Shown piece by piece: positions 32,935 to 52,375 of a stretch of 57,198 bases of DNA. The first letter of the stretch is position 1, and each line of letters opens with the position of its first letter. The stretch is from sequence record NC_049942.1; one strand, given 5' to 3'. A model generated the notes under the pieces. It was not told where the DNA came from, did no database searches, and saw only the letters and a list, made by a program, of their open reading frames with translations. The translations under genes and the position numbers were made by a program. The stretch is from Escherichia phage JLK-2012.

Positions 32935-32958
32935 AACCGCTCCGGCGGTTTTTTTATT
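32935..32958 (+). terminator. Hairpin plus T-tract between terL and the capsid gene (attenuator/terminator)
   Basis: ACCGC-TCCG-GCGGT followed by TTTTTTTATTTT. Confidence 0.55.
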
Positions 32959-32972
32959 TTCAGGAGGCTGAT

Positions 32973-34910
32973 GTGACTCTTAAACGGGCCTGTTCCCTGC
33001 TGACGGTGAAATCCTTCAGTGAGGATGAACGGGTGATCACCGGGATTGCGTCAACGCCTTCTCCGGATCGGGATGGTGACATCCTGGAGCCGGAGGGCGC
33101 GGAGTTTGGCAGTGCGATCCCGTTTCTCTGGCAGCATGACCATTCCCGCCCGGTGGGGCAGTGTACGGTACGCCGGGTCAGCGAAGGGCTGGAAATCACG
33201 GCAACACTGGTGAAGCCCGTACCGGATATGCCGTCGCAACTGGCTGCCCGGCTGGATGAGGTCTGGGCGGCCATTAAGACCGGGCTGGTCAGGGGGCTGT
33301 CCGTGGGCTTCCGTCCCCATGAATACACCTTTCTGGACGGAGGCGGACTGCATTTTCTGCGCTGGGAACTGATGGAGGTGTCTGCCGTCACCGTGCCCGC
33401 GAATGCGGAATGCACCATCCGGACCATTAAATCTTACGACCGCCCGTTTTCTGCCGCGTCCGGCAACCGGAAACCGGTGGTGAAAATCGCATCTTCTGCC
33501 GGCGCTGCGGCACAGTCAACAACCGTTTTTCATAAGGAAAAGACCATAATGAATATTGGCGAACAGATTAAAAGTTTTGAAAACAAGCGTGCAGCGCTGG
33601 CAGCCTCCCTTGAGGAGGTCATGACCAAAGCCGCAGAGGAAGGGCGCACGCTGGATGTGGAGGAGGAAGAGCACTACGACAACACCGCAGCGGAAATCCG
33701 TCAGGTGGATGCGCACCTGAAGCGCCTGCGTGAACTGGAAGCCGGTAAGGCCGCCACGGCGCAGCCGGTGAAACAGGCCGGTAACGGGAATGTGGCCGCG
33801 GTGGCTTCTGCGCCGGTGATCCGTGTGGAGCAGAAACTGGATAAGGGGATTGGCTTCGCCCGCTTTGCCAAATCGCTGGCTGCGGCTAAAGGCGTCCGAT
33901 CTGAAGCCCTGGAAGTGGCCCGTCGTCAGTATCCGGATGACAGTCGTCTGCATCATGTCCTGAAATCGGCAGTGGGCGCGGGGACCACCACGGATCCGCA
34001 GTGGGCAGGCAGCCTGTCTGAATATCAGGAATACGCACAGGACTTTATTGATTACCTGCGTCCGCAGACCATTATCGGGCGATTTGGTCAGGGCGGGATC
34101 CCTGCACTTCGTCAGGTGCCGTTCAATATCCGTGTGCACGCCCAGGTGTCCGGCGGTGCTGCCGGCTGGGTGGGTGAGGGTAAGGCAAAACCCCTGACGA
34201 AGTTTGATTTTGAATCCATCACCTTCAGTCATGCGAAAGTGTCGGCCATTGCGGTACTGACGGAAGAATTGATCCGTTTTTCCAGTCCGGCTGCTGATGC
34301 ACTGGTCCGTAATGCGCTGGCGGAAGCGGTGGTGGCGCGTCTGGATACAGACTTTGTGGACCCGAAAAAAGCCGCAGTGGCAGATGTCTCCCCGGCGTCC
34401 ATCACCCATGATGTGAAGGGCACGGCATCAACCGGTAACCCGGATGCGGATGCAGAGGCGGCGTTTGGACAGTTTGTGGCAGCAAACCTGCAGCCCACCG
34501 GTGCGGTCTGGCTGATGTCCAGCACCAATGCCCTGGCACTGTCCATGCGTAAAAATGCGCTGGGTCAGAAGGAATACCCGGACATGACCCTGCTGGGTGG
34601 CTCCTTCCAGGGGCTGCCGGTGATTGTCTCCCAGTACGTGGGTGACCAGCTGGTGCTGGTGAATGCCCCGGATATTTATCTGGCGGATGACGGCGGCGTG
34701 GCAGTGGATATGTCCCGTGAAGCATCACTGGAGATGCAGTCTGAGCCGACCGGCGACAGTACCACGCCGTCCCCGGTGGAGCTGGTTTCCATGTTCCAGA
34801 CAGGCAGCGTGGCCATCCGTGCGGAGCGCTGGATCAACTGGCGTCGTCGCCGTACCGCGGCGGTGGCGGTGATCACCGGAGTGAACTACGGCAGTGCGTC
34901 CGGCGGCTGA
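32973..34910 (+). CDS. Prohead protease - major capsid protein fusion (HK97-type)
   Basis: 645 aa; N-terminal ~190 aa resemble HK97-family prohead protease, remainder resembles HK97-fold major capsid protein; GTG start with CAGGAGG Shine-Dalgarno. Confidence 0.8.
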   Translation: MTLKRACSLLTVKSFSEDERVITGIASTPSPDRDGDILEPEGAEFGSAIPFLWQHDHSRPVGQCTVRRVSEGLEITATLVKPVPDMPSQLAARLDEVWAAIKTGLVRGLSVGFRPHEYTFLDGGGLHFLRWELMEVSAVTVPANAECTIRTIKSYDRPFSAASGNRKPVVKIASSAGAAAQSTTVFHKEKTIMNIGEQIKSFENKRAALAASLEEVMTKAAEEGRTLDVEEEEHYDNTAAEIRQVDAHLKRLRELEAGKAATAQPVKQAGNGNVAAVASAPVIRVEQKLDKGIGFARFAKSLAAAKGVRSEALEVARRQYPDDSRLHHVLKSAVGAGTTTDPQWAGSLSEYQEYAQDFIDYLRPQTIIGRFGQGGIPALRQVPFNIRVHAQVSGGAAGWVGEGKAKPLTKFDFESITFSHAKVSAIAVLTEELIRFSSPAADALVRNALAEAVVARLDTDFVDPKKAAVADVSPASITHDVKGTASTGNPDADAEAAFGQFVAANLQPTGAVWLMSSTNALALSMRKNALGQKEYPDMTLLGGSFQGLPVIVSQYVGDQLVLVNAPDIYLADDGGVAVDMSREASLEMQSEPTGDSTTPSPVELVSMFQTGSVAIRAERWINWRRRRTAAVAVITGVNYGSASGG

Positions 34911-34954
34911 GTCTGATGAGGAGGACGGGAGGCGTGCGCCTCCCGTAACAGGTT

Positions 34955-35176
34955 ATGGCAAAGATCCGATATCTGCAGGGCACGCATGATGCCCGGGCCG
35001 GGGATATCCGTGATGTGGCACAGCCGTGTGCGGAGGTGCTGGTTCGCCTGGGAAAGGCGGAGTACATCACAGTGCGACGTCCGGCAGGTCAGAAAAAGAA
35101 ACGTGATGCGGAGCATGGCGAATGTGGAACCTTTTGCGGCGAACCCGAAAAAACCAGAAATCAGGACGTGATGTAA
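34955..35176 (+). CDS. Small hypothetical protein (73 aa), overlaps portal start
   Basis: ORF between capsid and portal genes; no recognisable family. Confidence 0.25.
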   Translation: MAKIRYLQGTHDARAGDIRDVAQPCAEVLVRLGKAEYITVRRPAGQKKKRDAEHGECGTFCGEPEKTRNQDVM

Positions 35177-50747: not shown

Positions 50748-52061
50748 ATGGCAGTAAAGATTTCAGGTGTACTGAAAGACGGCACAGGAAAACCGGTAGA
50801 GAACTGCACCATTCAACTGAAAGCCAGACGGACCAGCAACACGGTGGTGGTGAACACGGTGGCCTCTGAAAATCCGGATGAAGCCGGTCGTTACAGCATG
50901 GACGTTGAGTACGGTCAGTACAGCGTCATTCTGTTGGTGGAAGGATTCCCGCCGTCACATGCCGGGACCATCACCGTGTATGAAGATTCTCAACCGGGGA
51001 CGCTGAATGATTTTCTCGGTGCCATGTCGGAAGATGACGTCCGGCCGGAGGCACTGCGTCGTTTTGAACTGATGGTGGAAGAAGCGGCGCGTCACGCTGA
51101 GGAGGCGAAGAAGAATGCCGGAGAGGCGGAGACGTCCGCGAGGAATGCCGGCATATCAGCCAGTCAGGCAGAAGAGAGCGCTGCAAATGCTGACACTTCA
51201 GCAGGGGAGGCATCGGAGTCAGCCCGGCAGGCGGCAGAAAGTGCAGCCGCTGCAAAGAAGTCAGAGGAAGCGTCCTCGTCCTCGGCCTCTGCGGCCGCTC
51301 AAAAAGCCAGAGAGTCATTACAAAGTGCAACAGATGCTGAATTGTCAAGAAAGACGGCAGAAAGTGCAGCCGGTAATGCAGCCAGGGATGCAACGACCGC
51401 AACAGAAAAAGCCCGGGAGTCAGCAGAAAGCGCACAGTCAGCGGAACAAAGCAGGATAGCGGCGGAAGAGGCCGTAAACCGAATCCCCACCGTGGTGGGA
51501 CCTCCCGGGCCAAAGGGGGAACAGGGGCCCGCGGGTCCTCAGGGGCCGAAGGGTGATAAGGGAGAGCGCGGTGACACCGGCCCTGTCGGGGCAACCGGCG
51601 AACGGGGACCGGCAGGTGATGCTGGTCCGGCAGGCCCGCAGGGGCCGAAAGGTGACAGGGGAGAGCGGGGAGAGACCGGTCTGACGGGAAATGCAGGTCC
51701 ACAGGGTCCAAAGGGAGACACCGGGGCAGCAGGCCCGGCAGGCCCACAGGGACCGAAAGGAGAAACAGGTGCGGCTGGCCCGGTGGGGGCAACCGGACCT
51801 CAGGGACCGAAGGGCGACCCGGGGGAGACACAAATCCGTTTTCGTCTGGGGCCGGCGAGCATTATTGAGACAAACAGCAATGGCTGGTTCCCGGGTACAG
51901 ATGGTGCGCTCATCACCGGACTGACCTTTCTTGACCCCAAAGATGCCACACAGGTTGAGGGGCTGTTTCAGCATTTGCAGGTCAGATTTGGCGACGGGCC
52001 GTGGCAGGATGTCAAGGGGCTGGATGAAGTGGGCAGTGATACAGGCAGAACAGGAGAATGA
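50748..52061 (+). CDS. stf: Side tail fibre protein with collagen-like Gly-X-Y repeats
   Basis: N-terminus MAVKISGVLKDGTGKPVENCTIQLKARR... as lambda Stf; ~110 residues of uninterrupted GXY triplets; shorter than lambda Stf. Confidence 0.85.
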   Translation: MAVKISGVLKDGTGKPVENCTIQLKARRTSNTVVVNTVASENPDEAGRYSMDVEYGQYSVILLVEGFPPSHAGTITVYEDSQPGTLNDFLGAMSEDDVRPEALRRFELMVEEAARHAEEAKKNAGEAETSARNAGISASQAEESAANADTSAGEASESARQAAESAAAAKKSEEASSSSASAAAQKARESLQSATDAELSRKTAESAAGNAARDATTATEKARESAESAQSAEQSRIAAEEAVNRIPTVVGPPGPKGEQGPAGPQGPKGDKGERGDTGPVGATGERGPAGDAGPAGPQGPKGDRGERGETGLTGNAGPQGPKGDTGAAGPAGPQGPKGETGAAGPVGATGPQGPKGDPGETQIRFRLGPASIIETNSNGWFPGTDGALITGLTFLDPKDATQVEGLFQHLQVRFGDGPWQDVKGLDEVGSDTGRTGE

Positions 52062-52062
52062 C

Positions 52063-52332
52063 ATGAATATACTAAAAAAACTTATGCAGCGTCTGTGCGG
52101 TTGCGGAAAGCATGATGACCGTGAAAACGGGGAGTTACTTACAGCACAGCTGCGACTGGGACCGGCAGATATTCTGGAGTCCGATGAGAATGGCATTATC
52201 CCGGAGCAGGACAGGGTAATCACGCAGGTGGTGATACTGGATGCGGATAAAAAGCAGATACAGTGCGTGGTAAGACCGCTGCAAATTCTGCGTGCTGACG
52301 GGACGTGGGAAAATATTGGCGGGATGAAATAG
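52063..52332 (+). CDS. Hypothetical protein (89 aa) downstream of stf
   Basis: ATG 2 bp after the stf stop with CAGGAG Shine-Dalgarno; not similar to lambda Tfa. Confidence 0.5.
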   Translation: MNILKKLMQRLCGCGKHDDRENGELLTAQLRLGPADILESDENGIIPEQDRVITQVVILDADKKQIQCVVRPLQILRADGTWENIGGMK

Positions 52333-52345
52333 CCGACGGGTTCAC

Positions 52346-52375
52346 AAAAACCGGAGTCCGGCTCCGGTTTTTGTT
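52346..52375 (+). terminator. Rho-independent terminator closing the tail operon
   Basis: ACCGGAG-TCCGG-CTCCGGT followed by TTTTTGTTG. Confidence 0.7.

Follow-up and report, generated by a model that had tools for sequence, protein, structure and literature searches.

The late region of Escherichia phage JLK-2012 (NC_049942.1; "the window" denotes this entire stretch of 57,198 nucleotides (nt)) contains a series of short GC-rich hairpins in the gaps between its head and tail genes (Table 1), and a T-run follows most of them. Their GC stems are 5-9 bp long, their loops measure 3-6 nt, and the T-run begins where the stem ends. All eight gap elements have the stem-loop anatomy of intrinsic terminators, with energies from -7.5 to -17.6 kcal/mol, and in seven of the eight, a U-rich tract lies directly 3' of the stem on the sense strand, the exception being the hairpin at 34925-34946. 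With moderate confidence, we interpret the elements as Rho-independent terminators arranged in series in the gaps of a lambdoid late operon, where they would stop polymerase that travels without the antiterminator Q. This interpretation draws on the anatomy of the elements, their bias in strand and position, the conservation of their structure, the presence of Q and the equivalent elements of phages lambda and HK97, all of which are observed here. Elements of this kind are known and have been described in lambda and HK97.

An earlier note on this DNA listed six hairpins with T-runs, namely, before the capsid, major tail, tape-measure, lom and stf genes and after the tail operon. All six are found on the plus strand, 1-5 nt from the positions proposed there, and two more elements within 32935-52375 were missing from that list, the hairpin before J (46477-46500) and the one after the capsid gene (34925-34946), which has no T-run. 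What the note also missed is that such elements have been described before in lambdoid late operons. In the gene map, the hairpins are located in untranslated gaps, 9-29 nt past the upstream stop codon, so that every one except the tape-measure element (9 nt) should be beyond the reach of the terminating ribosome. The hairpin at 34925-34946 is not classified as a terminator because it has no U-rich tract; it looks like an RNA 3'-end stabiliser of the capsid message instead. The element at 52349 scores on the minus strand as well because of the A-run upstream and thus looks bidirectional.

Table 1. Hairpin elements, late genes and features at the head of the late region of the JLK-2012 window.
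Coordinates	Strand	Feature	Details
22823-23311	+	Q antiterminator gene	Pfam PF06530, E = 3e-24
23357-23391	+	Terminator-like hairpin	After Q
23402-23632		Three Rfam tRNA hits	ARAGORN calls two: tRNA-Asn, tRNA-Gly
23646-23666	+	Terminator-like hairpin	After the tRNAs
24462-24634		STnc100, pR'-type short RNA	Rfam
24659-24677	+	Terminator-like hairpin	After STnc100 RNA
26709-26735	+	Hairpin and T-run	Before holin
30688-31251		Terminase small subunit	
31248-32909		Terminase large subunit	
32934-32951 (element 32934-32961)	+	Hairpin GAACCGC-TCCG-GCGGTTT, then TTTTATTTTC	7 bp, loop TCCG, -8.4 kcal/mol; 63-nt gap between terminase large subunit and protease-capsid fusion; 21 nt 5' of capsid GTG
32973-34910		Prohead protease-capsid fusion	GTG start at 32973
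34925-34946	+	Strong GC hairpin without T-run	9 bp, loop GTGC; 44-nt gap directly 3' of capsid gene
34955-35176		Small open reading frame (ORF)	
35122-37706		Portal, frameshifted	RefSeq
up to 39173		Connector and completion genes	
39160-39222	+	Tandem elements	Before major tail gene; at 39160-39176, weak hairpin overlapping the upstream stop codon, then T-rich run
39202-39216	+	Hairpin CCCGC-CGCGT-GCGGG, then TTTTTTATTA (T6)	Before major tail ATG
39239-39955		Major tail protein	ATG at 39239
up to 40649		Chaperones G/T	
40658-40673 (element 40658-40678)	+	Hairpin AACCGC-TGAG-GCGGTT, then TTTTTACG (T7)	6-7 bp, loop TGAG; 47-nt gap between tail chaperone T frame and tape-measure gene
40697-43939		Tape measure	ATG at 40697
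up to 46303		M, L, K, I	
46477-46500 (element 46477-46507)	+	Terminator-like hairpin before J	I-J gap
46543-50016		J, internal stop	RefSeq
50035-50054 (element 50035-50059)	+	Hairpin GGGCGCCA-GAAA-TGGCGCCT, then TTTTTATT (T6)	8 bp, loop GAAA, -15.1 kcal/mol; 67-nt J-lom gap
50084-50683		lom	ATG at 50084
50710-50731 (element 50710-50736)	+	Hairpin AGCCCGCC-GGTTCA-GGCGGGCT, then TTTTTGTG (T6)	8 bp, -17.6 kcal/mol; 64-nt lom-stf gap
50748-52061		stf	ATG at 50748
52063-52332		Tail-fibre C-terminal gene	
52349-52369		Hairpin AACCGGAGT-CCG-GCTCCGGTT, then TTTGTTGT	After tail-fibre genes
52344-52372	both	A-run, hairpin and T-run (CAAAAACCGGAGTCCGGCTCCGGTTTTTG)	Between last tail-fibre gene and NleG-type gene
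52445-53020		NleG-type effector gene	Pfam PF06416

A strict scan (perfect stem of at least 5 bp with at least 4 GC pairs, loop of 3-8 nt and a T-rich tail) of the region 30688-52444 identifies nine hits on the plus strand, against 0.53 +/- 0.78 (maximum 3) in 60 dinucleotide-preserving shuffles, and two hits on the minus strand. Seven of the nine plus-strand hits are located wholly within intergenic DNA, which amounts to 735 nt or 3.4% of the region (binomial P = 1.7e-9). Every gap of the structural operon that is at least 44 nt long contains a GC hairpin, and these gaps consist of little besides the stop codon, 9-29 nt, the hairpin, the T-run, the ribosome-binding site and the start codon. 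A looser scan shows no overall enrichment (24 hits against 16.9 +/- 4.3); its top six sites are all on the plus strand and five of them are intergenic. A promoter scan of 32600-52590 detects no sigma-70-like site on the sense strand: all five sites found are antisense, with 9.2 +/- 3.0 expected on both strands together. The absence of predicted sense promoters fits selection against Q-independent sense transcription.

Comparison of 160 related contigs from IMG/VR, in which each gap was extracted between conserved anchors, shows that no variant has lost the T-run, not even those with an alternative stem. The J-lom hairpin (50035) is represented by 13 variants, all fully paired (100%), with compensatory double changes at two pairs plus a wobble intermediate, and its covariation score is reached by none of 500 shuffles. 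The hairpin before J (46477) has changed from C-G to U-A via a U-G intermediate, with 100% of the cells paired, and the one at 34925-34946 shows one compensatory pair, A-U to G-C, with 98.9% of the cells paired. At the tape-measure site, there are two stems, ACCGC/GCGGT and ACCTGC/GCAGGT, the latter in 13 relatives, that differ by a paired T/A insertion and are both followed by T7-9. Single changes in the lom-stf element (50710) are mostly wobble-compatible, and the 52344-52372 element is conserved in three relatives (L001, L084 and L128) and in prophage Sp15 of E. coli Sakai. At the pre-capsid site (32934), the relatives vary only in the loop and the closing base, with the stem and T7-8 kept, and the pre-major-tail sequence CCCGCCGCGTGCGGG with its T-run is nearly invariant across 78 relatives; because they barely vary, these two sites are uninformative either way on structural selection. 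Taken together, the compensatory changes and the replacement of a stem with the T-run kept show purifying selection on structure, such that selection acts on structure and T-run rather than on sequence.

In some relatives (L129 and L106), the apex of the J-lom hairpin is inverted, from CCAGAAATGG to CCATTTCTGG, which is the signature of a palindrome-templated switch and not of point mutation.

The earlier note called the elements similar, which is true of their architecture; in addition, the pre-capsid and pre-tape-measure elements share a 23-mer, GAACCGCTNNGGCGGTTTTTTTA, at 32934-32956 and 40657-40679 (chance expectation 0.00). A variant found in relatives matches it at 22 of 23 positions, and a match with two mismatches is located at 18538-18560, at the end of an isrK/C4-type RNA. 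In IMG/VR, the 23-mer occurs almost only in pre-capsid and pre-tape-measure contexts. It represents either a terminator cassette copied between junctions or convergence. A dispersed repeat family of the REP/ERIC type was rejected, given that the 23-mer is present at two junctions only and the other stems are unrelated. The surrounding Rfam matches at 18472-18670 are isrK / C4 antisense RNA and its a1b1 target, that is, antirepressor control of the P1/P7 type.

Equivalent gene junctions are occupied in the related phages lambda and HK97. Lambda (J02459) has a hairpin with a T-run in the D-E gap (directly before E) and in the I-J, J-lom and lom-stf gaps, as well as a hairpin after E, in the E-FI gap. 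In HK97 (AF069529), seven sense-strand "putative terminators" are annotated within the late operon, before the protease/capsid genes, after the capsid gene, before and after the major tail gene, before the tape-measure gene, before I and before J; five of the seven have a T-rich tail and are recovered by the strict scan, which yields 5-6 sense-strand hits each in lambda and HK97. The source of these HK97 annotations is reportedly Juhala et al. 2000. The after-capsid hairpin has counterparts at 5192-5213 in HK97 and in the lambda E-FI gap, the pre-major-tail junction corresponds to the HK97 putative terminator at 6692-6719, the pre-tape-measure junction to the terminator of the HK97 gene-15 moron, and the pre-J hairpin to lambda 15466-15479 and HK97 15107-15129. 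In the J-lom gap, where the DNA is about 50% identical to lambda, the lambda stem is unrelated and followed by a T-run, so that the architecture is shared. The lom-stf element has its lambda ortholog at 19612-19633: the flanks are identical, the apex differs at four of eight positions, and the element lies within a block, beginning near 50600, that is 92-96% identical to lambda. With this sole exception, the stems are unrelated in sequence across the JLK-2012 window, lambda and HK97, and shared architecture with unrelated stems makes the feature a conserved property of lambdoid late operons that is kept as structure.

The similarity to HK97 extends to sense-strand GC hairpins, mostly with a T-run, in short gaps at matching junctions from capsid to J, whereas HK97 has additional elements after the major tail gene and before I and lacks lom; furthermore, protease and capsid are fused in the window, and there is no moron gene before the tape measure. 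With lambda, the window shares the architecture and strand of the elements and their distance from the following start codon, but lambda has no element before V or H, and its J-lom and I-J stems have other sequences. A further hairpin of the window is located inside a gene: the sense strand of the M-like gene (43932-44273) contains, at 44134-44158, the terminator-like sequence GGCATGGT-GGTT-ACCGTGCC followed by TTTTTG (-11.8 kcal/mol), and a comparable in-gene element is found at lambda 4484-4505.

One of the closest known systems, tR' with Q of lambdoid and Stx (Shiga toxin) phages (6S RNA, StxS), agrees in terminator kind, operon and Q logic; however, tR' is promoter-proximal and experimentally shown, whereas the elements in the window are predicted and lie 8-28 kb downstream. 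Morons are defined by the possession of their own promoter and terminator (PMC3594210). As in the terminators of HK97 gene 15 and lambda lom, the lom-stf hairpin (50710-50736) sits exactly at the moron-terminator position, directly 3' of lom, a gene that is absent from HK97, as would be expected of the terminator that closes a lom moron; most elements of the window, in contrast, are attached to no cargo gene. For the lom promoter, no sense sigma-70-like site is detected at the scan threshold, and only 30 nt separate the J-lom T-run from the lom ATG. In phage L, too, Rho-independent terminators have been predicted within a late operon that has one promoter and is antiterminated; the authors of that study suggest that they terminate partially or stop spurious transcription that is not antiterminated, and describe the roles as "not known" (10.1101/2020.10.05.325894); that phage differs in its P22-like podovirus virion genes and in the junctions involved. 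A literature search found no papers on the 3' ends of lambda late transcripts.

The assignment of the elements to a Q-antiterminated late operon, made in the earlier note, is borne out by the Q gene (PF06530) and the STnc100 pR'-type RNA of the prophage, which supply the operon with an antiterminator and a pR'-type start. Four hairpins with T5-8 tails (-11 to -17 kcal/mol) are located between Q and holin; a TerB-like gene lies between the 23646-23666 terminator and the STnc100 RNA, and a 617-aa DUF6645 gene between the 24659-24677 terminator and the 26709-26735 hairpin. In Sakai prophages, small RNA (sRNA) dyads of the AgvB/AsxR type are reported to lie in the stretch from the late promoter to the lysis genes; Rfam gives no match at the 26709-26735 element. 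Q proteins remain attached to the elongation complex, whose RNA exit channel they narrow; polymerase modified by Q is resistant to terminators (PMC12360218). In lysogens, Stx phages have a constitutive late promoter that is restrained by downstream termination (PMC7547250).

Given these features, we infer that the elements terminate unmodified polymerase and that their purpose is fail-safe. Polymerase lacking Q could originate from leakage past tR' from the constitutive late promoter, from weak cryptic promoters or from transcription of cargo such as lom. On transcribing the GC stem and the U-tract, such polymerase would release its transcript as the hairpin forms in the RNA exit channel. Each element would be partial, and three of them weak, but in series their effects would multiply, and the head, tail and upstream lysis genes would thereby be kept off in the lysogen; the series might also insulate the late genes from cargo transcription. 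For Q-modified polymerase, by analogy with established lambdoid Q biology (PMC12360218), read-through is expected, the hairpins being unable to act, with one long late transcript as the outcome. In the read-through RNA, the hairpins might constitute secondary barriers to 3' exonucleases, most clearly at 34925-34946, and a U-tract so close upstream of the ribosome-binding site may help ribosome loading.

The observation made in the earlier note is confirmed and is statistically and evolutionarily solid, whereas its interpretation is partly supported. It had read the elements as hairpins with T-runs that would be passed within a Q-antiterminated operon and could set basal polarity or stabilise mRNA. 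A terminator reading agrees with the anatomy and with the placement in untranslated gaps. Tuning of basal polarity fits poorly: the elements precede the genes that are needed in the largest amounts (capsid and tail tube), and attenuation there would be counter-productive, which makes this idea less attractive. As for stabilisation, a 3' hairpin would protect the RNA upstream of it (terminase, tail-completion gene) and not the gene that it precedes; such a role is plausible for 34925-34946 and would be a by-product at the other sites.

Several points weigh against serial termination. If internal sense promoters are scarce, little spurious transcription would be left to be stopped besides the pR' leak. 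At least one member of the set, the hairpin at 34925-34946 without a T-run, is not a terminator. The hairpins at 32934, 39202 and 40658 are weak (-7.5 to -8.4 kcal/mol, 5-7 bp) and may terminate poorly, and the z-scores of whole-gap folds are modest, from -1.1 to -2.7 (-2.3 for the gap with 34925-34946 and -2.4 for the pre-tape-measure gap). Fold energy being weak when taken alone, the case rests on position, strand, T-run and conservation. Placement 16-29 nt before start codons is equally expected from a translational role or from genome economy. Finally, the portal frameshift and the internal stop in J annotated in RefSeq (both genes are split in two in the ORF list) indicate that the prophage is probably unable to make particles; it is probably defective, which makes a present-day function in the genome of strain DEC5E moot.

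The most credible of the alternatives, itself unlikely, is that the hairpins act mainly in mRNA processing or stability, blocking 3'-to-5' exonucleases or protecting 5' ends after RNase cleavage, so that the long late transcript would decay in segments of differing half-life and thereby set protein ratios. The hairpins remain in read-through RNA regardless of any other role; that at 34925-34946 is conserved with a compensatory change despite the lack of a T-run, and both lambda and HK97 have a hairpin at the same place after the capsid gene. Stabilisation, however, does not require the U-tract that seven of the eight gap hairpins have and that every variant keeps, and the upstream genes that would be protected (terminase, tail-completion gene, chaperone) encode low-copy products. 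Somewhat less probable is that the elements are translation-initiation modules, in which the U-tract would recruit ribosomal protein S1 and boost capsid, tail-tube and other genes, with the hairpin freeing the ribosome-binding site from long-range pairing and uncoupling the upstream gene. This would be compatible with the distance of 16-29 nt from the hairpin 3' end to the start codon at five sites, with similar spacing in lambda and HK97 (10-30 nt), and with the U-tract directly 5' of a strong Shine-Dalgarno sequence, AGGAGG before the capsid GTG and the tail-tube gene. Yet genome compaction alone would produce such spacing, S1 needs no GC stem abutting the U-run, which is what all sites have, low-copy genes (J, lom and stf) are preceded by elements as well, and the element after the last tail-fibre gene is 77 nt from the next start.

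An origin as relics or boundaries of morons and mosaic joints that hitch-hike without a role of their own in the late operon is improbable, more so than either of the preceding explanations. Several junctions do coincide with cargo slots: lom is present in lambda and the JLK-2012 window and not in HK97, the pre-tape-measure gap is the slot of the HK97 gene-15 moron, the I-J gap, highly mosaic, is the slot of HK97 morons 22 and 23 and contains an antisense sRNA unit in the window, the last element adjoins the NleG effector gene, and one 23-mer terminator occurs at two junctions. Mere hitch-hiking is nevertheless difficult to reconcile with the purifying selection indicated by compensatory changes and by stem replacement with the T-run kept, and the pre-capsid and pre-major-tail junctions have no known cargo and carry an element in HK97 as well. 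We regard it as highly improbable that the elements are 3' ends of small regulatory RNAs or of Hfq-binding RNAs derived from 3' untranslated regions (UTRs) and made in the lysogen, for which StxS from tR' and many EcOnc RNAs of prophages of enterohaemorrhagic E. coli (EHEC) would be precedents. EHEC prophages are rich in Hfq-bound sRNAs (PMC4104026, PMC7873438), the lom 3' UTR consists of two hairpins and a U-tail, and the Hfq-bound family EcOnc22-24 maps to the I-J gap. The RNA in that gap, however, is antisense to the late operon and has a terminator of its own at 46346-46315; the gaps contain no Rfam family and no predicted sense-strand promoters; HnrS is located elsewhere and absent from the window, EcOnc35 and EcOnc47 are off these junctions, and the identity of the lom 3' UTR with lambda is explained by the mosaic block. 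A small probability, between those of the last two explanations, goes to the scenario in which the terminators end discrete Q-independent sense transcripts in the lysogen, e.g., a lom mRNA that yields an Hfq-binding 3' UTR, with cassettes copied between junctions; if true, the junctions of the late operon would keep supplying prophages with new regulatory RNAs.

The antisense unit of the 239-nt I-J gap (46306-46441) starts with a promoter-like site on the minus strand, TTCACA, 16 nt and AATAAT at 46441-46412, with -10 and -35 elements that divergent relatives retain, and ends with the terminator that abuts the gene I stop codon. The predicted RNA of about 100 nt has a fold z-score of -2.9. Its probable counterparts are the Sakai RNAs EcOnc22/23/24, which are Hfq-bound, about 85 nt long and less stable when Hfq is missing. 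In Sp15, EcOnc22 falls within the I-J gap and runs antisense to the late operon; the exact register of this mapping rests on a coordinate shift of about 136 nt inferred between NC_002695.1 and NC_002695.2. No same-strand Hfq peak or known sRNA is found at the elements among the published Sakai peaks, which are antisense in the I-J gap or located elsewhere.

Several other candidates were rejected. HnrS (EcOnc10-12, 66 nt, "within the late genes") is encoded beside a ylcI-like gene, ahead of the terminase genes and in the orientation opposite to the late operon (Tree et al. 2014, Table S2), in a segment that is absent from the window, and a duplex search against the hha leader yields only noise. 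As sense-strand junction peaks, EcOnc35 fails because it lies in the rearranged lysis region of Sp4, and EcOnc47 because it lies several hundred nt past the Sp15 tail-fibre terminator. Rfam matches no family in the gaps, whether at the gathering threshold or at E <= 1, apart from a Trp_leader match (E = 0.38) that reflects a generic terminator-like shape. The idea that the lom 3' UTR is specially conserved was dismissed in view of the mosaic block from near 50600 described above. The I-J gap, which is strongly mosaic among the relatives, contains a 12-codon ORF, the frame of which is broken by insertions and deletions in relatives, so that a conserved small protein was not retained as a candidate.

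Bases 30000-53000 of the window are 100% identical to a single record, E. coli O55:H7 DEC5E (NZ_CP038383.1, 1915390-1938390), and late regions with about 95% identity are present in hundreds of genomes of EHEC and enteropathogenic E. coli (EPEC) as well as in Stx1a- and Stx2-converting phages. Inducible relatives include phage Lys8385Vzw and an Stx1a phage whose late genes are 95% identical. According to RefSeq annotation and Pfam, which provide the late-gene identities, the head genes are of the HK97 type and the tail genes of the lambda type. The elements carry little weight as a discovery, having been seen in the lambda sequence and annotated in HK97 more than 20 years ago; their residual value is that the role of intra-operon terminators has never been settled in the literature. 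In Sp15, the Stx1 prophage of O157:H7 Sakai, the J-lom and lom-stf hairpins are identical and the hairpin after the tail-fibre genes is near-identical, with U-tracts that end near 2899175, 2898498 and 2896862, respectively, on the minus strand of NC_002695.2; Sakai has roughly 10 similar prophages. With public Sakai Term-seq and differential RNA sequencing (dRNA-seq) data (GEO GSE143631, Sy et al. 2020), the fail-safe idea is therefore cheaply testable. If serial terminators silence a constitutive late promoter, they would contribute to the tight control of lysis and of the toxin operon in EHEC and EPEC prophages.

Directly past the bidirectional terminator that ends the tail operon, the gene of the NleG-family type III effector (PF06416) occupies a cargo position. 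Elsewhere in the window, Rfam detects, both on the minus strand, the lambda cIII thermoregulator at 7505-7563 and the ALIL pseudoknot, a frameshift signal of the IS3 family, at 9070-9186, which implies an inserted insertion sequence (IS) element.

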